DNA of 52,294 nucleotides from assembly GCA_039935735.1 (NCBI GenBank), contig JBDTJR010000258.1, forward strand, positions 1 to 52,294, in the 5' to 3' direction. A program made the position numbers and the translations under genes. Under the pieces are notes generated by a model. It had not been told where the DNA came from and did not search any database. It was given only the letters and a program-made list of their open reading frames with translations. The stretch is from Chthoniobacterales bacterium. GTDB lineage: Bacteria > Verrucomicrobiota > Verrucomicrobiia > Chthoniobacterales > JBDTJR01. Shown here piece by piece: positions 9,807-19,724 of the stretch. Positions within the stretch are counted from its first letter, which is position 1. Each line of letters opens with the position of its first letter.

Positions 9807-10574
9807 TCAAGCCGGAGAGACGAGTCGATCCTGAAGCTCCTTGAGGCTGACGGTAAGGGGGAGTTTGTTGCCATCGGCCATTTTGACGATGTGGCCACCC
9901 TTGCCCTCGGTCACGATCTCAAGCACATGGGTGAGATTCAGTATGGCAGAGCGGTTTGCGCGAAAAAATTTCTCAGGATCGAGTCTCGACTCCAGATGAC
10001 TCATGGTTTCGCGCAGGAGAAGACGCCGCCCATCACGCGTGCATATTTCCACATAGTTTCCACTGGCGAGACAGCAGACAATATCGATCACGGGAACGAT
10101 TGATATTTTGATGCCGTCTTTCACGGCAAGGCGCTGTGGATACTGCGCTGAGGCATTTTGTGGCACAGCATGCAACAAGGCTTCGAGTTTCGTCGTGACA
10201 CTCTCCTGCTGCCGGTCTTTCAAAATGCGACGGACGTGTTCGAGGCTTTCGTGAAGACGTTCCTGACGGAAGGGTTTCAAAAGATAATCCACCGCATGCA
10301 CTTCGAAAGCGCGCACGGCATGTTCATCAAAAGCCGTTACGAAAACAACCAGGGGGCGGCAATCCGGCGAGAGGTCTCTCAGCACATCAAAGCCATTCCG
10401 ACCGGGCATTTGAATATCCAGAAAGATCAGGTCGGGCGTATGCGCGACAATGGCGTCGAGTGCGACGTTTCCATTTTCGCATTCCCCGGCAATTTCAATA
10501 TCCAACTCTGCGCCTAAAAGTTTTCGCATGCGTTGCCGTGCGGGTGCTTCGTCATCGATAATCAAAACCTTCAT
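9807..10574 (-). CDS. LytTR-family two-component response regulator (AlgR/LytR-like)
   Basis: REC domain (IIDDEAPAR, FLDIQMP, FVTAFDEHAVRAFEVHAVDYLLKP) followed by a LytTR domain (ASGNYVEI, FFRANRSAILN). Confidence 0.95.
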   Translation of the reverse strand: MKVLIIDDEAPARQRMRKLLGAELDIEIAGECENGNVALDAIVAHTPDLIFLDIQMPGRNGFDVLRDLSPDCRPLVVFVTAFDEHAVRAFEVHAVDYLLKPFRQERLHESLEHVRRILKDRQQESVTTKLEALLHAVPQNASAQYPQRLAVKDGIKISIVPVIDIVCCLASGNYVEICTRDGRRLLLRETMSHLESRLDPEKFFRANRSAILNLTHVLEIVTEGKGGHIVKMADGNKLPLTVSLKELQDRLVSPA

Positions 10575-11764
10575 GAATTCTCTTTTTCAGGATGAATCGC
10601 GACGACCGGCATTTCGCAGCGTGCGGTGATGCCTCCCTGCGGATTAGGCAGGAGATCAAATGCCGTGGCGTGGCCGGGAAAAGATGCCGCGAGACGCGCC
10701 CGTATATTGGCTACCCCCACGCCATGACCCTTTTGTGCATCAAGCGTCCAGCCCGCACCGCTGTCCTCCACTTCGAGAACCAGTTTGTCGCCGATACGCT
10801 CCGAGCGCAGACGAAGCGTTGAGCCTTCGGGATTCGGATCGATGGCGTGCTTGATGGCATTTTCCAAAGCAGGCTGAAGAATCAAGGGGGGGACGGGACA
10901 GGCCAGTGTCTCCATGGAAATGGCCTCTTCAATTTTCAATCGCGCGCCGTACCGCGTCTGTTGAATCGCAAGATAGTCTCGTGCCAATTCAAGTTCCTGG
11001 CGAAGTGGAATGAGTGACTTGTCTCTCGTCTCCAATGTCGCGCGCATAAGGCTGCTTAGATTAAGCAACACTTCCTCCGCTTTATCGGGATCGGAATGCA
11101 CGAGCGAGGTCAGGGTATTGAGCGTATTGAAAAGAAAATGCGGCTGAAGTTGTGCGCGCAAAGCCTGCAGCCGCGCATCGGATAACTGCGCTTCCAGTTC
11201 CAAGGCGATGCGTGCTTTTTCCGAGGATTCGCGCCGCAGCTTAAAACTTCCCACCAGCAAAATCGCTGCCACATAGAGAGGCAGCCCCACGGGAAGACTG
11301 CGAAGAAAATTCCCTATGGCAGGACCATTTCGCGGATCGTTACGTGGATCATTTTGGCGACCGGGGGGCGGAAAGGGAGGTTGACCTGGTCCTGGAGGCA
11401 GGCCCTCCGCATGTGCGCCGAAAGGCGGCGGCTGTCCCCCTCCCTCTTCGGGGGGCGGCAGGACTTGTCTCGAAAGCCAGCCAGCAAAGAAAACGAGCAC
11501 ACTACAGGCGATGATATGACCGAAAATAGAACGCGCAGACAGTTTTCCACCCAAAGGCAAGGCATAGCCCATGAGCAGCATGAGCGGACTGACGACAATC
11601 CACGGCAGCCAAAGAATGAACGCGCCATGAAATGCCTGCGACGCATTGATTCCCAGAACCATGGAAGTCTGGGCAACGAAGAGAAGAATCAGGCATCCCC
11701 AAAATACAACAAACCCGCCCATGACGATAACGATCGGAGATGAGGAGCGGTCACCGGAGGCCAT
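10571..11764 (-). CDS. LytS/YehU-type membrane sensor histidine kinase
   Basis: N-terminal TM helices, H-box LRAQLQPHFLFNTLN, LQPALENAIKHA, VEDSGAG and GHGVGVANIRARL. Start taken at MASGDR (11764). Overlaps the regulator start by 4 nt. Confidence 0.92.
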   Translation of the reverse strand: MASGDRSSSPIVIVMGGFVVFWGCLILLFVAQTSMVLGINASQAFHGAFILWLPWIVVSPLMLLMGYALPLGGKLSARSIFGHIIACSVLVFFAGWLSRQVLPPPEEGGGQPPPFGAHAEGLPPGPGQPPFPPPGRQNDPRNDPRNGPAIGNFLRSLPVGLPLYVAAILLVGSFKLRRESSEKARIALELEAQLSDARLQALRAQLQPHFLFNTLNTLTSLVHSDPDKAEEVLLNLSSLMRATLETRDKSLIPLRQELELARDYLAIQQTRYGARLKIEEAISMETLACPVPPLILQPALENAIKHAIDPNPEGSTLRLRSERIGDKLVLEVEDSGAGWTLDAQKGHGVGVANIRARLAASFPGHATAFDLLPNPQGGITARCEMPVVAIHPEKENS

Positions 11765-11822
11765 ACCGCAAAATATTATCCTGCACAGGCAGTCTGCACA
11801 AACAAAAGTTCCGGGTATCGAA

Positions 11823-11876
11823 TTCGCCCCACTTTGGGCGGTGTTTGTCCCCTGAGTGGGCACTTTCGTCCCCTGA
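11823..11876 (+). promoter_or_regulatory. Three direct repeats at a 21-bp period; putative LytTR operator
   Basis: TTCGCCCCACTT (11823), TTTGTCCCCTGA (11844) and TTCGTCCCCTGA (11865), lying between the LytS/LytTR pair and the divergent operon. Confidence 0.7.
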
Positions 11877-11913: not shown

Positions 11914-12588
11914 ATGAAAATGAAATACCCTCGGGCGCAATGGAGAATCTCAATCCTTGCCGCCGCTGTTTTTGCGGGAACCCTCCATTCCTCGAAAGCC
12001 GAGGACTGGGAAAAGTCCTCGGGACTATGGACGCAGTCCGTCGTGCTGGAACAAAAGGCCAACTACGAAGGCTCGCTTGCCATCATGGGGGAGTTTGCAC
12101 GCGAGGGGCATGATAACTACCTCGCGATGCTGCGCAGCGGATGGCTGAGCTACGAAGCCAAGCAGTATAAAAAATCTATTCAATATTATGATGCAGCGGC
12201 AAGAGCCATGCCCACCTCCGTAACGCCGCTTCTTGGTTTGGCAACTTCCTATCGCGCGGATGGAGATACCGCTTCCACCGAAAAAACCTATGAGCAGGTT
12301 CTCATGCGTGATCCGGGAAATTATACCGCAGCGCTGGCGCTCGGAAGCTATTGGTATCTCAAAAACGATTTCTACAAAGCAGCGCAATATTATGCGCTGG
12401 TGCAAAAGCAATATCCTGAAGATACCACAAGCCTAAGCGGTCTCGGGTGGTCGCTCATTTATCTCAATAAAAAACGGGATGCGCAGCCGCTTTTTCAACG
12501 ACTGCTGATTTTATCGCCGACTTATCTCCAGGCGAAACAAGGCTATGACATTTCAGGCGGAAAGCAGGCTGTGGCAACTCGCCCCTGA
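11914..12588 (+). CDS. Secreted tetratricopeptide-repeat protein
   Basis: Signal peptide (MKMKYPR...HSSKA) followed by TPR-like helix pairs (LRSGWLSY..., LLGLATSY..., ALALGSYWY..., LSGLGWSL...). Start taken at 11914. Confidence 0.85.
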   Translation: MKMKYPRAQWRISILAAAVFAGTLHSSKAEDWEKSSGLWTQSVVLEQKANYEGSLAIMGEFAREGHDNYLAMLRSGWLSYEAKQYKKSIQYYDAAARAMPTSVTPLLGLATSYRADGDTASTEKTYEQVLMRDPGNYTAALALGSYWYLKNDFYKAAQYYALVQKQYPEDTTSLSGLGWSLIYLNKKRDAQPLFQRLLILSPTYLQAKQGYDISGGKQAVATRP

Positions 12589-12599
12589 ACTTTAATTTT

Positions 12600-12854
12600 A
12601 TGAACCGTCAACTCATCTCCAACTTTGCGGTCAGTCCGAACGGACTCGGATTTCGGTCCGACACTGGGGAAGTATATCGACTAAATCCCAGCGCGTGCGA
12701 AATCCTTCGACTAATCAGCGACGGGAAAGACGATGTTTATATTTCCCAATACCTCTCGGAGAAATATGCGCAACTCCTGCCGCGCATGCGGAATGATCTC
12801 TCTTCATTTTTTGAACATCTGGAAAACCTTCGACTCATCACCCCTCATGAATGA
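12600..12854 (+). CDS. PqqD-family / RiPP recognition element (RRE) protein
   Basis: 84 aa with TGEVYRLNPSACEILRLISDG...ISQYLSEKY...DLSSFFEHLENLRLI, the typical three-strand, three-helix PqqD pattern. Confidence 0.85.
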   Translation: MNRQLISNFAVSPNGLGFRSDTGEVYRLNPSACEILRLISDGKDDVYISQYLSEKYAQLLPRMRNDLSSFFEHLENLRLITPHE

Positions 12855-13917
12855 TAAAACGTTTCCTTTGCTTGCCGTCACGGGTCTTGGTCGTGGCGAA
12901 AATCCCCAACCCGGCTTTGCCGTGGCGGCAAGTTTGCTGCGAAACTGGCCCATGGCGCACATTGCTGGCCTGGCATACGATGCGCTTGAGAGCGGAATTT
13001 ATGCCACCGACTGTTTTGATGCCGTCTTTACGATTCCCTATCCCTCCGTGGGAACTCAGATAATGCTGGAGCGTATCGACGAGATTCGAAGCAAGTTTCC
13101 TTTTACCGTGCTTATTCCGACATTGGACGCAGAGTTGGAACTTTTCATAAGCCTGCGCAAGGAACTGAATGATCGCGGGATTCAAGTGATGCTACCGGAC
13201 AGCGATGCGCTAAAGGCACGAAGAAAATCCAACCTCCCCACTCTCGCCGCAGCCGCAAAAGTCAAAGTCCCTTGCACCTATATCGCAAACAGCGCTTATG
13301 AGGCCGCCGAATATTGTGCAATAATCGGATCAGCCGTCATGGTCAAAGGGCCTTTTTATGAAGCACGCCGCGCGGAATCTCCCTTCATAGCAAGTGTACA
13401 CGCAAGCCGGATTCTAGCCGAGTGGGGCGGGCCGATCATTGTACAGGAAATCATCACGGGAACAGAATTTGATCTACTTGGCCTGGGCGACGGCACGGGC
13501 CGCATGCTGGGCTCGTGCTCGATTCGCAAGATGGTCGTCTCCTCCCAGGGTAAAGGATACGCGGGAATTACCGTGCATGACAAAAATCTCCTGAGTGTGT
13601 GCGAATCACTTCTCAAGGAATTGAAATGGAAGGGCCCTCTGGAATTTGAATTCATACGAGACAAGGACGGAGAATTCTACCTGATTGAAATTAATCCCCG
13701 ATTTCCTGCGTGGGTGGATTTCCCCGCTCAGCTCGGATGCAACCTCGCGCAGGCTGCCGTGGAAAATCTTCTCGGATGGGAATCGAAAATGCTATGCGAC
13801 ATTCCTGCCGGAAAGATCTTTCTGCGTCACAGCGTGGACATGATTTGTGATGTCGAAGAATTCGCGGCTCTTACTGCGGAAGGCTCCATTGTTCGCACCT
13901 ACACCGATCTCGTATGA
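12847..13917 (+). CDS. ATP-grasp carboxylate-amine ligase
   Basis: Motifs LIPTLDAEL, VMVKG, IIVQEIITGTEF, WKGPLEFEF and YLIEINPRF. Start taken at MNDKTF (12847), overlapping the PqqD stop. Confidence 0.9.
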   Translation: MNDKTFPLLAVTGLGRGENPQPGFAVAASLLRNWPMAHIAGLAYDALESGIYATDCFDAVFTIPYPSVGTQIMLERIDEIRSKFPFTVLIPTLDAELELFISLRKELNDRGIQVMLPDSDALKARRKSNLPTLAAAAKVKVPCTYIANSAYEAAEYCAIIGSAVMVKGPFYEARRAESPFIASVHASRILAEWGGPIIVQEIITGTEFDLLGLGDGTGRMLGSCSIRKMVVSSQGKGYAGITVHDKNLLSVCESLLKELKWKGPLEFEFIRDKDGEFYLIEINPRFPAWVDFPAQLGCNLAQAAVENLLGWESKMLCDIPAGKIFLRHSVDMICDVEEFAALTAEGSIVRTYTDLV

Positions 13918-15365
13918 AAACTCCCACTGCTTACGAACCACCTCGTATCGAGCTACTCGAAACGGGCCACATGAACCGAACGGCTTATGGCACACAGCCC
14001 ACCTGCTGCAAGGCAATAGACGGAATCGAGATTGAGGAACTCCTCAAAGCGCATGGTTCGCCGCTCTTTGTATTTTCAGAACGCACGCTTCGACAAACTT
14101 TTCAGCGCGCAAAAGCGGCGTTTGCGAGACACTACCCAAATTTTCAATTCGCATGGTCTTATAAGACGAACTATCTCAAAGCAATCTGTGCGGTTTTTCA
14201 CAGCGAAGGCGCTTTTGCGGAAGTCGTCTCGGAATTCGAATACGAAAAGGCGCGTGGGATGGGCATTCTCGGAAAGGAAATTATTTTCAACGGACCGCAT
14301 AAGCCGAGGAATGTTCTTCGTCGCGCATTGCTGGAAGGTGCACGCATCCAGATTGATCACTTCGAGGAATTAATTGCGGTGGAGGAAATCGTCGCGGAGG
14401 AAGCGCTGGATAATGCATGCGTTTCCCTGCGCCTTTACCTTGATGCGGGCATACGGCCCATTTGGTCGAAGTTTGGTTTTAATCTTGAAGATGGCGAGGC
14501 ATGGCGTGCCGCCCAGCGTCTGCACCACGGCGGCGTGGTGCGTCTCACCGGACTACATACTCACCTGGGAACTTTTATACTCGACCCAAATGCCTACCGC
14601 ATCGCCGCGGGCAAGCTGACGCAGTTTGCCGCGCGCATGCACAAGGATCTGGGTTTTGAAATTAACACTTTGAATATGGGCGGAGGCTTTGCATCACGCA
14701 ATACGCTGCATGGTCAATATCTCCCAGCGGAACAGATCACGCCGGATTTCGAGGCGTATGCGGCAGCGATCAGCGAAGGAATTTTTAACAATCTGCCGGT
14801 GGACATGAAACCTCCGAAGCTGCTTCTTGAATCCGGAAGATCTCTTGTTGACGAAGCGGGTTACTTGCTCACCACGGTCATCGCCAATAAACGCAATCGT
14901 CTTTTTTCCGAAGCCGCCGCTCTGGCCACCGCAGCAAAAGGCCCCGTGAGCCAACGGACTGCGTCGTGTGTTCCAGGATCACCAGCGATCATTGTCGATG
15001 CAGGGGTTCATCTTCTTTATACGGCAAACTGGTATCGGCATAAAATTCAACCCGTGCGGGCATCGTCGGGACAACCTGTTCCCACGACCGTTTACGGATG
15101 CCTGTGTATGAATATCGACGTCATTCAGGAAGCAACTCCCCTCCCCGGACTTAGCCCCGGCGATACCCTCGTTATTCATCCGGTGGGCGCCTACAACATC
15201 ACGCAGTCGATGCAGTTTATAGGTTACCGCCCTGCCGTCGTCATGGTCATGGAAAATGGAGATGTGGAGGTCATTCGATCTCGCGAAACTCTCGCTTACG
15301 TGGAGGCTCTCGAGTATTTGCCTGAATTTATCCGAAACAAAAAAATGGAGAACATTACCGTATGA
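13914..15365 (+). CDS. PLP-dependent fold-type III decarboxylase-family enzyme (diaminopimelate decarboxylase-like, substrate uncertain)
   Basis: HGSPLFVF, SYKTN (PLP lysine), IIFNGPHK, SKFG, GLHTHLGT, LNMGGGF, ESGRSLV, GCLCMNID and VGAY. ATGA overlap with the ATP-grasp gene. Confidence 0.88.
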   Translation: MKTPTAYEPPRIELLETGHMNRTAYGTQPTCCKAIDGIEIEELLKAHGSPLFVFSERTLRQTFQRAKAAFARHYPNFQFAWSYKTNYLKAICAVFHSEGAFAEVVSEFEYEKARGMGILGKEIIFNGPHKPRNVLRRALLEGARIQIDHFEELIAVEEIVAEEALDNACVSLRLYLDAGIRPIWSKFGFNLEDGEAWRAAQRLHHGGVVRLTGLHTHLGTFILDPNAYRIAAGKLTQFAARMHKDLGFEINTLNMGGGFASRNTLHGQYLPAEQITPDFEAYAAAISEGIFNNLPVDMKPPKLLLESGRSLVDEAGYLLTTVIANKRNRLFSEAAALATAAKGPVSQRTASCVPGSPAIIVDAGVHLLYTANWYRHKIQPVRASSGQPVPTTVYGCLCMNIDVIQEATPLPGLSPGDTLVIHPVGAYNITQSMQFIGYRPAVVMVMENGDVEVIRSRETLAYVEALEYLPEFIRNKKMENITV

Positions 15366-17560
15366 GTTCTTCATTTCATTCCTTGAGAAAAACTTTCCTA
15401 CTGTCGGAACTCAGTTACGCAAATGTGCTTTTTACCGGCGAGGCGAAGATGGGAGCGTTGCTACTTCTTACAACATTTCTCAATCCCTGGCAGGGCGCTA
15501 CCGGACTCGCAGGAATTCTACTCACTCTCTGGATTGCGAACAAAACAGGATTCGACTGTTTTTCAGTTTCCAGCGGACAGCTTCTTTTCAATTCTCTTTT
15601 ATCCTCACTCGCCCTCGCCTATTGGCTGCCGTTTGGTTCTGTCTCTTTGATGATTTATGTCGCACTTCTTTGTTTTATTTGTGCGGCAACGCTGGGTGTT
15701 ACGTTAGTTCTTAATCATTGCACGATTACCCTCACCGGCATACCAGCGCTGAGTCTTCCATTTTGCGCCACGTCGACGGCTTTGCATTGGATCATTGTAC
15801 AAACGGGGCTTACTTTTCATCTCCCCGGATCGCATAGCAGTCTTTTCACGCTGGAACTTCCTGCACACGTGACGCTCTGGCTGGAATCTTTAGGATCAAT
15901 TTTCTTTCTTCCCCATATCGATGCAGGAATCTTTATCGCCGTTATCGTTCTCCTTACCACACGGCTTAACTTTCTTTATGCCATAGTCGGTTTTGCCGTC
16001 TCGATGGGAGTGATGCGCGGTACAGGATACTCTGTGAACGAATCTGCGTGGCTGCATTTGAACTGCATCCTTTGCGCGATGGCTCTGGGAGGCACTTTTT
16101 TTGTTCCGTCGCGTTACTCACTTTTGGTCGCGGTTGTCGGCTCCGCTTTTTGTGCTCTTATCGGAATAGCATCTATTCACTTCCTTCAACTGCTTGATAT
16201 TCCCGTCCTGACATTGCCATTTAACATAACCGTTATAGGTATTGTCGCCGCATTGCGTTGGAGAATAAGCCGGACGCATCCCACTTCGGTATCGATTCCC
16301 GGTTCCACACCGGAAGCCACCTTCCGAATCGCACAACTTACGGAGGCACGCTTCCCAGACTCCGATTTGCCAACACTCGCACCGCCTTTCGATGGTGAGT
16401 GGATTGTCACACAGGGCTTTGAAGGAAAACTGACTCACCGGGGGGCGTGGCAGCATGCGCTGGATTTCGAAGTTGCGGACTCGACTCATAAACCAGCACG
16501 ACCAAAGAGTTCGGAGCTTAAGGATTTCCCATCGTTTGAAGCTCCCATCGTAGCTCCTTCTGATGGGAAAATCATAAGCATCATTGACGATGTCGCGGAT
16601 AATCCCATTGGGGAAAACAACCTTTCTGATAATTGGGGGAATTCCATACTAATGGAACTCTCTCCTGGTCTCTACGTGCAGCTTTCTCATTTTCGCCGCC
16701 AGGGCATTCGAGTACGGGAAGGAGATCGCGTAAGACGAGGTCAGCTTCTCGGTTATCTCGGCAATTCCGGACGGTCTCCCCTCCCTCACCTGCACTTGCA
16801 AATGCAAACCATTCCCGAAATCGGAGCTCCTACAATTCCCTTTCGCTTTCATGGCTATCGCACACCTGCGGAATCATCCAGGTGGTTCTATCACTTCCGG
16901 GGATTGCCGTTGGAAAACCAACCACTCGCGGGGTGTCGGAAAACACGTTGGATGGAAGATTGTTTTAACTATCCTGATGAGCGTGACCATCAATACCGGG
17001 TATTCACCGCCGCAGGAGAAGATGAAGAAACGCTTCATTTTTTAACAAACCCCGATGGCAGCCCTCATTTATATTCTTCAAAATATTCCTCACATCTTCA
17101 TTTGAAAATTTATAATCACCATCTGATTCCATGGGATTACAAGGGCCCTCGAAATGGCATCCTCTTCCTGTTGTGGCAAGCCGGCAGAATACCGCTTTTC
17201 CCAATCGGTGGACTGACATGGAATGAAACGGTAAGTACAAACCCTGGTTCAGGCTTTCAAAAGGCGTGGGGTGATCTTCTTGCGCCTTTCACACAATCCA
17301 AGCTCCCTGAGTTGAGCGGCGAAATACTGGATTATGATAACGCCACAAAGCAATTTACCATTCGCTGCCATTTCCATAGTCGCTCTTCAAAAGAATCTCT
17401 TCAAATTCTCGAGCTTTGCTTCGATAACCAACTCCTGCTGGTCTCCGGACGCATCGAGACGAGTAAAAGCTGGATGCGTTTCATAACCTCAAAATCGCCT
17501 GATCTTCCTTACGGAATATTCCCCATTTCGGAGAGGGAGGAATCTCGCTGTTTAGTCTAA
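15362..17560 (+). CDS. Urea-transporter-family membrane domain fused to an M23 metallopeptidase domain and an unknown C-terminal domain
   Basis: Hydrophobic N-terminal ~300 aa with the duplicated UT signature IPALSLPF/IPVLTLPF. Then THRGAWQHALDF, APSDGKI, WGNSI, GDRVRRGQLLGYLGNSGRSPLPHLHLQ (M23 HxH motif). Confidence 0.85.
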   Translation: MSSSFHSLRKTFLLSELSYANVLFTGEAKMGALLLLTTFLNPWQGATGLAGILLTLWIANKTGFDCFSVSSGQLLFNSLLSSLALAYWLPFGSVSLMIYVALLCFICAATLGVTLVLNHCTITLTGIPALSLPFCATSTALHWIIVQTGLTFHLPGSHSSLFTLELPAHVTLWLESLGSIFFLPHIDAGIFIAVIVLLTTRLNFLYAIVGFAVSMGVMRGTGYSVNESAWLHLNCILCAMALGGTFFVPSRYSLLVAVVGSAFCALIGIASIHFLQLLDIPVLTLPFNITVIGIVAALRWRISRTHPTSVSIPGSTPEATFRIAQLTEARFPDSDLPTLAPPFDGEWIVTQGFEGKLTHRGAWQHALDFEVADSTHKPARPKSSELKDFPSFEAPIVAPSDGKIISIIDDVADNPIGENNLSDNWGNSILMELSPGLYVQLSHFRRQGIRVREGDRVRRGQLLGYLGNSGRSPLPHLHLQMQTIPEIGAPTIPFRFHGYRTPAESSRWFYHFRGLPLENQPLAGCRKTRWMEDCFNYPDERDHQYRVFTAAGEDEETLHFLTNPDGSPHLYSSKYSSHLHLKIYNHHLIPWDYKGPRNGILFLLWQAGRIPLFPIGGLTWNETVSTNPGSGFQKAWGDLLAPFTQSKLPELSGEILDYDNATKQFTIRCHFHSRSSKESLQILELCFDNQLLLVSGRIETSKSWMRFITSKSPDLPYGIFPISEREESRCLV

Positions 17561-17567
17561 TGAATGC

Positions 17568-19724
17568 CTACGCACCCTGTCTGTTCTCGAGACGCTCCAG
17601 CGCTTTTTCGAGAGCAAGCGAAAGCGACCACTGTCGGATTGGCTTGGTAAGAAAATCATCCATGCCCGCTTCTTCGGCTCTACGTCTGTCTTCCGGAAGA
17701 ACGGCTGCCGTAAGTGCAATGACCTCGACTCTTGGAGAGTGTCTTCCGGCTTGTTCAAGACGACGAATTTCGCGTGTAGCCTCGAACCCATCCATTACGG
17801 GCATCTGGCAATCCATAAGGATGACATCGAAACTTTCCGAATTTTGAACCATGAGAGCGGCGATCCCGTTTTTTGCACTCACGATGTGTTCGCAACCCAT
17901 GCGCTTGAGTAGAAGTGTGATCAGTTTCGAATTCGATTCGTTATCATCGACTACGAGAATCCGTAGATTGGAAACATTTTTTGAAACCTTCGGAATTTGA
18001 AACTTTTCCTCTGCTGCCAAATTTTCATTAATGATTGAATGGTGCCTGGGCTCCGACGACTTCGAAAACGGTACCTCGAAATGGAAGATCGAGCCTTTAT
18101 CCATTTCGCTTTCCACCCAAATACGTCCACCCATGGCTTCGATAAGCGACTTACTAATCGCAAGCCCCAGTCCCGTTCCGCCAAACTGGCGTGAGGTTGA
18201 AGAATCCACCTGTGCAAATCGCTCGAATATTTGCACATATTTATCCTCAGGAATGCCGATTCCCGTGTCCTCTATTTTAAAATGCAGTAAATGCTGTGCG
18301 GCTTCCTCCCGCTTTGTGTCTTCCACTTCGCTGGAAGTAAGCTGGATTTCCACAACCCCAAGTGTAGTAAATTTTATGGCATTCGATGTGAGGTTAATTA
18401 AAACCTGCTTTAATCGATTCGCGTCTCCCATCAGAAAGGCAGGAACGGCAGAATCGATCGATACCTTGAAATTCAGATTTTTCTCCCGCGCTTTTTGCGA
18501 AAAAAGTTCCTCCACCTGTCGCACACAAAGCGTTGGTGAAAATACGTTGTTCTCAAGATCAATGCGTCCCGCTTCAATTTTTGAATAGTCGAGGATATCA
18601 TTGATGAGATTGAGCAGTACCTCTCCGCCCGTGAGGATGGGTTTAATAAGTTCGCGGGATTTTTCCGTAGGGCCGGTATCCCACAGAAGACTGGCAAAGC
18701 CGAGAATACTGTTTAGAGGAGAGCGAATCTCGTGGCTCATGGCCGCGAGGAACATACTCTTTGCATCTTCAGATAATTTTGCCCTACTGGTTGCAGCCAG
18801 GAGTTCAATCTTATCCCTCCGGATGGACTCCATTAATGTCGCCACCAGAATCGACGGAATGATTATCAATATTATTCCCGCATACCTTGCCGGATCAAAT
18901 CCGGGATGAAAAGCAAATGTCTGCAGCACAATGCCGGTCGTCGTTACAATATCGATTGAGAGTAAAGTAATCAGATTGAGAAAAAAACTTACACTGAGCG
19001 GCAACATCAGTGCGGCGATAACCAGCACGAGATTCAAAAGCAATACCGGAGGAAAGGAATGCTGTCGGGCAACTCCGGTAATCAACACAAAGAACACCAC
19101 GAAAATCACTACCAGAATCAAGAGATCTTTATTCCACAAAGCCCGTAGTCGCTCCCGCGTAATTGCCAGACAGAAAGGAAGCGCCGCAAACATTCCCAGC
19201 ACATGTGCAAGATACCACTGGAATGTATAACCCGGGAAATCTGTTATTCTAAAAATCCATACTCCTAAAGCACCAATCAGAAAACCCACCAAAGGAGCGA
19301 CAAGCATTGAAGGAGCAACACCCAAAATCAAACCTTTGATTCCGTGAGGAAAATTATGCGGCACATTAAAGCGGGAAATCAGCGCAATCCCCACCACGAT
19401 TTCAGCAAAATTTTGAGCAGTTAGAATTATAGAGGCCGTCAATGCGTATCCATATATCAAATATGCCGCAAGTATCAGGAGTCCTGTTATTGCCAATGCG
19501 CTGGCGCGTCTACGTTTCGGAAAACGCGTAATTGCGGCTGCCGCAATGCCTCCAGGGAGCCACACGGTCGCTACAATATTCGACTGACTCGCAAGATAGA
19601 TGCACAGCAGAGACAGGCAAAAATATAAAAAGCCGCAAATACAAAAAAAGAGCGCTCTCGATAGACGAAGAAATCGAATGTTCTCCGGCGGCTTCATAAG
19701 ATACCTTTCCGCAGACCGGAACAT
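17568..19724 (-). CDS. Hybrid sensor histidine kinase (MASE1-like TM region, HisKA, HATPase, REC)
   Basis: Multiple TM helices with VWLPGG; FLAAMSHEIRSPLN; NLTSNAIKFT; DTGIGI; GGTGLGLAIS; VVDDN...LMDCQMPVMDG...GMDDFLTKP. Confidence 0.95.
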   Translation of the reverse strand: MFRSAERYLMKPPENIRFLRLSRALFFCICGFLYFCLSLLCIYLASQSNIVATVWLPGGIAAAAITRFPKRRRASALAITGLLILAAYLIYGYALTASIILTAQNFAEIVVGIALISRFNVPHNFPHGIKGLILGVAPSMLVAPLVGFLIGALGVWIFRITDFPGYTFQWYLAHVLGMFAALPFCLAITRERLRALWNKDLLILVVIFVVFFVLITGVARQHSFPPVLLLNLVLVIAALMLPLSVSFFLNLITLLSIDIVTTTGIVLQTFAFHPGFDPARYAGIILIIIPSILVATLMESIRRDKIELLAATSRAKLSEDAKSMFLAAMSHEIRSPLNSILGFASLLWDTGPTEKSRELIKPILTGGEVLLNLINDILDYSKIEAGRIDLENNVFSPTLCVRQVEELFSQKAREKNLNFKVSIDSAVPAFLMGDANRLKQVLINLTSNAIKFTTLGVVEIQLTSSEVEDTKREEAAQHLLHFKIEDTGIGIPEDKYVQIFERFAQVDSSTSRQFGGTGLGLAISKSLIEAMGGRIWVESEMDKGSIFHFEVPFSKSSEPRHHSIINENLAAEEKFQIPKVSKNVSNLRILVVDDNESNSKLITLLLKRMGCEHIVSAKNGIAALMVQNSESFDVILMDCQMPVMDGFEATREIRRLEQAGRHSPRVEVIALTAAVLPEDRRRAEEAGMDDFLTKPIRQWSLSLALEKALERLENRQGA

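Follow-up and report, generated by a model that had tools for sequence, protein, structure and literature searches.

What does a RiPP recognition element (RRE) bind when the operon that encodes it has no peptide to offer? RREs are the chief class-independent handle in the mining of peptides made on the ribosome and modified after translation (RiPPs), and are assumed to mark a short precursor nearby. The question is raised by a 52,294-nt contig of a Chthoniobacterales bacterium (JBDTJR010000258.1, assembly GCA_039935735.1; this whole stretch is called the window below), in which five forward genes encode a tetratricopeptide repeat (TPR) protein, a small PqqD-family RRE, an ATP-grasp ligase, a pyridoxal 5'-phosphate (PLP) decarboxylase with a LysA-like core, and a membrane protein, UT/M23, that joins a urea-transporter-like (UT) domain to an M23 metallopeptidase. 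A sequence-only reading of the window had described this operon as tightly packed, with no room for a separate precursor gene, and the spacing bears this out: a gap of 11 nt between the TPR and RRE genes is followed by overlaps of 8 nt (RRE/ATP-grasp), 4 nt (ATP-grasp/decarboxylase) and 4 nt (decarboxylase/UT-M23). It had also noticed a YxxPxI motif, of the kind found in lasso-peptide leaders, at the very start of the decarboxylase, and had proposed that the RRE binds a leader built into an enzyme. The answer favoured here is that the cognate leader of the RRE is probably the N-terminal ~25 residues of the decarboxylase, whose gene lies two downstream of its own, with the RRE most likely acting as an adaptor. 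Binding to an enzyme-borne leader, the core of the earlier proposal, is supported by four independent lines of evidence: the type of RRE, its contact triad, the status of the motif as a family signature, and covariation between the two.

A lasso-type RRE and a leader-type motif

Which kind of RRE is it? Over residues 21-80 the protein scores 35.7 bits with Pfam PF05402, above the cut-off of 23.4, and a family profile of 43 members, searched against all PDB sequences, matches TbiB1 (5v1u/5v1v, 1.3e-13), TfuB1 (6jx3, 5e-13), PbaB1 (9x90, 1.7e-6), LppB (9x8z, 2.4e-4) and true PqqD (3g2b, 1.1e-3). Because TbiB1 and TfuB1 outscore PqqD in this search, the 84-aa protein is, judged by its profile, a lasso-B1-like RRE and not a PqqD of the pyrroloquinoline quinone (PQQ) type; against the PqqD model TIGR03859 it scores 20.4 versus 46 bits.

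That YxxPxL docks leaders on B1/RRE proteins was the premise of the sequence-only reading, and two papers describe a YxxP-type leader motif as just such a docking signal (PMC10368454, PMC13381572). According to the second, [Y/W]xxPx[L/V/I/F/A] occupies two hydrophobic pockets in the LppB and PbaB1 complexes: D70 of LppB hydrogen-bonds the leader Tyr, N33 holds the kink at Pro, and F74 touches Pro-13 and borders the second pocket, while F83, its equivalent in PbaB1, separates the pockets (PMC13381572). The same paper reports that D70A reduces binding and N33A almost eliminates it, and that in the paeninodin RREs, which read Trp, the two sites are taken by Gly and Gln (PMC13381572). With the chain index of 9x8z_B taken as the paper's numbering plus 18 (verified on twelve residues that the paper names: N33, V35, C39, I56, Y60, E61, V63, V67, D70, F74, M78 and L83), a HMMER alignment matches N33, D70 and F74 of LppB to profile positions 27, 64 and 68 and thereby to Asn29, Asp66 and Phe70 of the window protein; in the same alignment the first two of these sites are Gly and Gln in PbaB1, in agreement with the paper. 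By this alignment the window RRE retains the whole Tyr-reading triad. The three columns are conserved through the family, with Asp in 151, Asn in 149 and Phe in 153 of 161 RREs. Ser or Thr stands in the Asn29 column of 10 of the 161 (L004-L010, L012, L053, L065, L082); the motif opposite is of the Tyr type in every case, and in most it has Pro at +2 (YxPP).

The putative ligand lies at the start of the decarboxylase, whose ATG shares bases with the TGA of the ATP-grasp gene (GTATGA) and is the earliest possible start after the in-frame upstream stop; positions 13914-13991 encode MKTPTAYEPPRIELLETGHMNRTAYG. As the sequence-only reading had it, an extension precedes the LysA-like core: in solved homologues (LysA, FslC, D-Orn/Lys decarboxylase) the alignment starts no earlier than residue 34/35 (IDGIEIEE...), and matches to Pfam and NCBIfam models begin at residues 32-62. 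In a family-profile search, the best solved relative, FslC (7kh2, 3.9e-85), covers profile positions 24-456, BtrK (7ru7) scores 3.2e-40, and no solved protein covers the first 17 positions. Residues 1-100 searched against PDB sequences gave no match for residues 1-33, in a file that excludes leader chains shorter than 20 residues, and the 35-residue N-termini of three loci matched no NCBIfam family at E up to 10.

Is the motif more than a chance string in this extension? A protein search returned 4342 proteins at E <=1e-30 among 8000 scored candidates, and of the best 120 (49-100% identity), 116 carry [Y]xxPx[I/V/L/F/M] in their first 28 residues, counted by eye and by regular expression; a purely automatic tally of 118 included two false matches on GSPLF in the core. 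The four exceptions (P0020, P0022, P0044, P0072) are N-terminally short records that start inside or past the extension. A 45-sequence alignment shows no variation at Y7 and P10 of the window motif, YEPPRI (residues 7-12), and conservation of 90% or more at N21 and G26. Among 161 non-redundant cluster copies the first position is Tyr in 143, Trp in 15 and Phe in 3; Pro(+3) is present in all 161, and +5 is Ile in 134, Leu in 16, Val in 8 and Phe in 3. The three Phe variants fall outside the [Y/W]xxPx[L/V/I/F/A] pattern of PMC13381572, the rest within it. A second conserved string, motif B, follows at a fixed offset from the Tyr, +11 to +17: G(+11) in 145 pairs, N(+14) in 140, K(+15) in 147, F(+16) in 128, and a G at +17. 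The stretch between motif B and IDG is variable in sequence and has no conserved residues.

These figures answer two of the concerns that accompanied the original proposal. The motif is conserved in homologues from the cluster, while solved LysA aligns only past the extension, and the decarboxylase does not begin downstream at Met20 (MNRTAYG), since the residues upstream of Met20 are conserved as protein across phyla. A relative without the extension also exists: a 30%-identical, 424-aa decarboxylase in another genome (L084 8183-11915, G022) has neither extension nor motif, and no PqqD-family gene was found among the ORFs scanned around it; its neighbours are a PylC-like ATP-grasp enzyme and an NAD-dependent epimerase, which makes it a natural comparison pathway. 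The motif is a family signature of the decarboxylase wherever the cassette occurs, and is far from chance.

Covariation of the motif aromatic with an RRE aspartate

Do the RRE and the motif travel together? Scanning a single genome for each species turned up 593 stretches that encode a relative, and the cassette was analysed in the best 80, with models derived from the proteins of the window and refined by iteration over these loci. In 75 of the 80 the RRE lies directly upstream, adjoining the ATP-grasp and decarboxylase genes, with the ATP-grasp gene between the other two. UT/M23 follows the decarboxylase wherever the contig continues (in L028 from the opposite strand, in L055 in the form of split ORFs), and a TPR homologue lies in or near the cassette at most loci, commonly behind UT/M23. 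Four of the five loci without an RRE end at a contig edge (L032, L076, L078, L081).

The pairs of partners were also compared residue by residue. Pairs were drawn from the 80 loci, from 87 matches in the Bacteroidota class of genome G041 (which entered the pairing as 30 loci and separately fetched stretches), and from loci in samples of the phylum of G043 and the class of G044; after exclusion of pairs with one partner lost at a contig end and merging of exact duplicates, 161 remained. Wherever the motif begins with Tyr, the RRE has Asp at the site of Asp66 (143/143). Opposite the three Phe motifs the site is occupied by Tyr (two) or Phe (one), and opposite the 15 Trp motifs by Asp (8), Glu (4), Gly (2) or Ala (1).

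The changes were also placed on a tree of the ATP-grasp proteins (FastTree, 160 tips, midpoint root). Non-Tyr motifs arose four times on this tree, and the non-Tyr clades make up 6.87 of 49.79 units of tree length (13.8%), yet they contain all five parsimony changes in the Asp column. As a control, 413 of 3328 changes over all RRE columns (12.4%) fall in those clades. Of 12 columns that are at least 80% conserved, only the Asp column has all of its changes there; the other 11 have 0-36%, and the two further members of the contact triad have 0/7 (the pocket Phe) and 1/8 (the Asn). Random placement would give five out of five with a chance of ~3e-5, or ~2e-3 if only three independent Asp losses are counted. 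In a blind ranking of N-terminal against RRE columns by mutual information (137 pairs), Tyr/Asp comes 7th of 1752; this analysis is too weak to build on, and phylogeny inflates the other top pairs.

The covariation of Tyr and Asp is the decisive result, and it goes in the chemically expected direction. A hydrogen-bond acceptor is retained opposite every Tyr, is left free to vary opposite Trp, and gives way to an aromatic residue opposite Phe, which has no donor: a pattern that makes chemical sense. In the gammaproteobacterial genome G044, two copies of the cassette are present (L068/L203 and L171/L210), with decarboxylases 64% identical; both are of the Trp type and retain the RRE Asp.

How an enzyme-borne leader might be used

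By analogy with the solved leader complexes, Tyr7 would enter the first hydrophobic pocket, its hydroxyl hydrogen-bonded to Asp66; the kink at Pro10 would be held by Asn29 and stacked on Phe70; Ile12 would occupy the second pocket; and the residues after Ile12 would add a β-strand to the RRE sheet, with the unconserved stretch serving as a tether to the body of the decarboxylase. The RRE would in this way engage decarboxylase residues ~5-20 in the B1-leader mode. What would be gained? As an adaptor, the RRE would keep the decarboxylase beside the ATP-grasp ligase, whose amide-linked amino-acid product would be handed straight to the decarboxylase, the assembly being part of a small-molecule pathway linked to UT/M23 and TPR. 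A bridge between ligase and decarboxylase is probable because the RRE and ATP-grasp genes overlap and because RREs usually pass their ligand to a partner enzyme. An order of ligation followed by decarboxylation would also fit the nearest solved decarboxylases, FslC, which acts on amide-linked ornithine, and BtrK, which acts on carrier-bound glutamate. Binding, the ternary assembly and the chemistry of the pathway are what we infer from sequence comparison.

Must a bound N-terminus be held in place, or could it be worked upon? On the model of lasso B1, which presents a leader to the B2 protease, the RRE might present the N-terminus of the decarboxylase as a substrate, either for modification by the ATP-grasp enzyme or for cleavage by M23 near NKFG-Gly, and thereby activate or regulate the decarboxylase, or release a part of it. 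Everything that argues for binding argues for this version too, and motif B, whose offsets relative to the Tyr are fixed (+11 for G, +14 for N, +15 for K, +16 for F, +17 for G), resembles in this the set positions at the end of a lasso leader (Thr -2; PMC10368454). A peptidase domain is always at hand in the cassette, and basic residues (RWRISR) right behind the final hydrophobic segment of UT/M23, located by a crude hydropathy scan, hint weakly that its M23 domain may face the cytoplasm, which would be unusual for the family. The residues themselves fit such a role poorly. No conserved nucleophile-acid pair offers itself for a cross-link by the ATP-grasp enzyme: Lys is absent from the window protein between Y7 and G26, neither Glu(+1) nor Lys(+15) is invariant, and the residues that are (Tyr, Pro, Ile, Gly, Asn, Gly) resemble those of recognition or turns. 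The ATP-grasp protein is unlike graspetide maturases (15.3 versus 350 bits for TIGR04187), and we know of no precedent for stoichiometric modification of a 483-aa enzyme. Processing of the N-terminus is, on balance, rather unlikely.

The extension could, alternatively, belong to the enzyme alone, as a dimer arm or an active-site lid whose likeness to a leader is coincidental, with the RRE binding some other target or only the ATP-grasp protein. N21 and G26 are nearly invariant although they lie beyond the leader-type motif, and other fold-type III enzymes have N-terminal segments of 13-33 residues before the aligned core. Conserved aromatic-x-x-Pro strings occur, moreover, within the folded cores of the ligase, M23 and the decarboxylase itself. 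These internal strings do not vary with the RRE Asp, whereas the N-terminal one does, and it is here that the structural explanation falls short: it gives no account of an Asp that changed only where the Tyr had changed (5/5 against a background of 12.4%), nor of the aromatic residue that replaces it in the Phe variants. Another ligand for the RRE was sought among small ORFs (12-90 aa, intergenic, no more than 1.5 kb from any of the 80 cassettes): the pattern [Y/W]xxPx[L/I/V/F/A/M] occurs in 48 of 2612, against a rough expectation of ~60 from amino-acid frequencies, and these 48 are scattered in position over the two strands, with no similarity evident by eye. With no other candidate ligand found near the 80 cassettes, a purely structural extension is improbable.

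Of the machinery of RiPP synthesis, a single PqqD-family match is present in the window genome, which is 86% complete; the lasso protease PF13471 was not found in that incomplete genome, and neither a B2 protease nor an Asn-synthetase-like cyclase is among the five cassette proteins, PF00733 occurring only on other contigs of the genome. That this is a true RiPP cluster, its small precursor encoded elsewhere or missed, and the decarboxylase a tailoring enzyme whose N-terminus mimics a leader to compete or regulate, is very improbable: RREs normally serve short precursors, and short genes are easily overlooked in a genome of this completeness, but no conserved motif-bearing small ORF accompanies the cassettes of so many phyla, the window operon leaves no space for one, and nothing in the cassette is like an enzyme that defines a RiPP class.

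Several observations pull against an adaptor that reads the decarboxylase leader. The events behind the covariation are few (four non-Tyr origins, at least three independent Asp losses), sampling was deliberately enriched around clades with known non-Tyr variants, the tree rests on a single protein, FastTree and a midpoint root, and the eight Trp variants that retain Asp show that the rule is not one-to-one. The RRE is under the cut-off of the lasso model NF033530 (lasso_PqqD_Strm; 25.1 versus 70 bits). Motif B is about as conserved as motif A, and docking on the RRE alone does not account for it. Bearing on the contact between RRE and ATP-grasp enzyme, no fused form of the RRE was found among longer proteins at E 1e-8, itself weak evidence, and the fifth locus without an adjoining RRE belongs to a 1.4-Mb Aquificota genome (G446) in which the RRE, ATP-grasp, UT/M23 and decarboxylase genes are dispersed over four contigs (L037, L174, L201, L202). 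The decarboxylase of this genome retains the motif despite the dispersal. Long frames at some loci (822-884 aa, 1212 aa) had suggested fusions of ligase to decarboxylase or of decarboxylase to UT/M23; no ORF has two families in one frame, and the loci L105 and L188 proved on reading to have separate genes, the long frame of L188 being out-of-frame GC-rich sequence.

The cassette, its spread and its relatives

The features of the window operon are collected in Table 1. The start given for the TPR gene, 11914, is the probable one and was chosen within an ORF that opens at 11740.

Table 1. Genes and sequence elements of the cassette in the window
Feature	Position	Strand	Basis
TPR-repeat protein	11914..12588	+	Pfam TPR_16 1.4e-14; signal-peptide-like start
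PqqD-family protein, 84 aa, discrete lasso-B1-like RRE	12600..12854	+	PF05402 35.7 bits
RRE key codons Asn29; Asp66; Phe70	12684-12686; 12795-12797; 12807-12809	+	
ATP-grasp ligase, 356 aa	12847..13917	+	Pfam ATPgrasp_Ter 4.1e-7, ATP-grasp_3 1.9e-5
Fold-type III PLP decarboxylase, 483 aa, LysA/FslC-like	13914..15365	+	Pfam, PDB matches
N-terminal extension, decarboxylase residues 1-34	13914..14015	+	outside all solved homologues
Motif A YEPPRI, Y7-I12	13932..13949	+	leader-type [Y/W/F]xxPx[I/L/V/F]
Motif B GHMNRTAYG, G18-G26	13965..13991	+	family consensus GxMNKFG
UT/M23: urea-transporter-like membrane domain, M23 metallopeptidase and C-terminal part, 732 aa	15362..17560	+	Pfam UT 3.2e-37, Peptidase_M23 1.3e-10

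The decarboxylase, named as a PLP enzyme from its letters alone, passes the cut-offs of both Pfam models of its fold (PF02784 Orn_Arg_deC_N, 1.2e-29, 103.9 bits; PF00278 Orn_DAP_Arg_deC, 2.5e-11, 44.1 bits) and stays under the curated equivalog cut-offs of LysA (TIGR01048, 191.4 versus 297.9 bits) and FslC (NF041039, 193.4 versus 500). Matches of the ATP-grasp ligase to NCBIfam models of the PRK12767 type are far under cut-off, and its sole PDB match is 2pn1 (4e-5). The C-terminal part of UT/M23, ~250 aa, has no Pfam assignment. An NCBIfam scan of the five cassette proteins put none of them above a curated cut-off; the curated library of NCBI accordingly holds no family for them.

The best 80 loci span Verrucomicrobiota, Planctomycetota, Ignavibacteria, Aquificota, Gemmatimonadota, Bacteroidota, Myxococcota, cyanobacteria and others, and the frequency of the decarboxylase is uneven: it was found in 87 of 401 sampled genomes of the Bacteroidota class mentioned above, in 22 of 401 of the phylum of G043 and in 7 of 400 of the class of G044. 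In the window's own phylum it was found in 1 of 351, this one being the window genome itself, and 40 genomes related at the level of order gave two distant matches (30-31% identity), one of them the 424-aa decarboxylase without the extension. Because the decarboxylase is rare in its own phylum and common in others, its distribution suggests that the window lineage probably acquired the cassette horizontally.

Further genes accompany the cassette at some loci. In four (L004-L007; Akkermansia, Prosthecobacter, Verrucomicrobiaceae), an extra ORF downstream (~12500-15900) is matched by both the UT and TPR models, and may encode a second UT-like protein fused to TPR repeats. A conserved ORF of ~300 aa with a signal-peptide-like start lies between UT/M23 and TPR in 16 of the 80 loci (e.g., L079 11274-12224), and a second family of this kind is present in eight; both are absent from the window, and both may be outer-membrane proteins. 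In the window, the cassette is flanked upstream by divergent genes (9807-11863, minus strand) for a 430-aa membrane protein and a 255-aa protein, by eye a histidine kinase of the LytS type and a response regulator of the LytTR type, and downstream by an ORF (17568-19724, minus strand) that resembles, also by eye, a hybrid sensor kinase; at 16 loci a family of sensor-kinase-like ORFs is likewise met no more than 5 kb from the cassette.

How new is this arrangement? A full-text literature search (supplements unopened) found no published description of the cassette or of an RRE that reads an enzyme terminus, and passages of papers on RREs, graspetides or RiPP mining, PMC12710340, PMC8939145 and PMC10352776 among them, contain no mention of either. 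The chemistry of recognition is the familiar one of B1 proteins and leaders; what is new is the bearer of the leader, together with its context. We regard as evenly poised the wider proposal that a lasso-type RRE and its leader motif were recruited from RiPP synthesis as a portable docking pair, in which a free RRE clamps an enzyme-fused leader into a ligase-decarboxylase assembly, within a widespread, envelope-linked pathway that would range over Bacteroidia, Myxococcota, Ignavibacteria, Aquificota, Planctomycetota, cyanobacteria and others. If this is true, RRE matches of this type met in genome mining mark no RiPP clusters, and Tyr/Asp, Trp/variable and Phe/aromatic are naturally occurring specificity variants within a single docking code. 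An enzyme-borne leader seems to be what a large RRE subfamily reads, and confirmation of binding would (i) provide the first natural case found in which RRE-leader recognition serves to assemble enzymes with one another or to process an enzyme; (ii) flag a whole class of false RiPP predictions; and (iii) supply a small natural tag-and-clamp pair, with Tyr, Trp and Phe variants, for enzyme scaffolding. The cassette also points to an uncharacterised five-gene pathway composed of RRE, ligase, decarboxylase, membrane UT/M23 and TPR.

Among known systems, the closest in recognition are the lasso B1 proteins with their leaders (TbiB1-TbiA, 5v1v/5v1u; TfuB1/FusB1-leader, 6jx3) and LppB-LppA (9x8z). 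They too are discrete PqqD-fold proteins of ~80-100 aa, give the best sequence matches of the RRE, share its Asn/Asp/Phe contacts and read [Y/W]xxPx[L/V/I/F/A], with the choice of Tyr or Trp tied to the residue at the Asp site. Unlike in lasso clusters, the motif is carried by a 483-aa PLP enzyme instead of a precursor of 30-50 aa; a lasso leader ends ~17 residues past the Tyr and gives way to a core peptide, whereas here the motif begins an enzyme; the partners are an ATP-grasp ligase and a decarboxylase, with no B2 protease or lasso cyclase in the cassette; and a Phe variant of the motif occurs, with an aromatic residue in place of the Asp. PqqD of the PqqD-PqqA-PqqE system of PQQ biosynthesis shares with the RRE its membership of PF05402 and its position as a small chaperone gene beside the enzyme served, but the similarity is far weaker (3g2b, 1.1e-3), and the cassette has neither a radical-S-adenosylmethionine enzyme nor a PqqA-like peptide.

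For the enzymes, the likeness lies elsewhere. In amino-group carrier protein systems, such as LysW with the ATP-grasp enzyme LysX, a small protein escorts intermediates between a ligase and downstream enzymes, as may also happen here; LysW differs in that the substrate is bound covalently to its C-terminus and in not being an RRE. In butirosin synthesis, BtrI, BtrJ and BtrK are a carrier protein, an ATP-grasp ligase and a LysA-fold decarboxylase that acts on carrier-bound glutamate. Here, as there, the partner of an ATP-grasp ligase is a fold-type III decarboxylase for amino acids that are protein-borne or acylated, and BtrK (7ru7, 3.2e-40) is a solved relative of the window enzyme; unlike there, the cassette lacks an acyl carrier protein, the small protein is an RRE, and a recognition peptide sits on the decarboxylase. 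The closest solved relative is FslC (7kh2, 3.9e-85), the N-citrylornithine decarboxylase of rhizoferrin synthesis. Although FslC leaves the first 23 profile positions, the region of the motif, uncovered, and the cassette lacks an NRPS-independent siderophore (NIS) synthetase, FslC acts on an amino acid already amide-joined to another acid, which fits an order in which the ligase comes first and the decarboxylase second.

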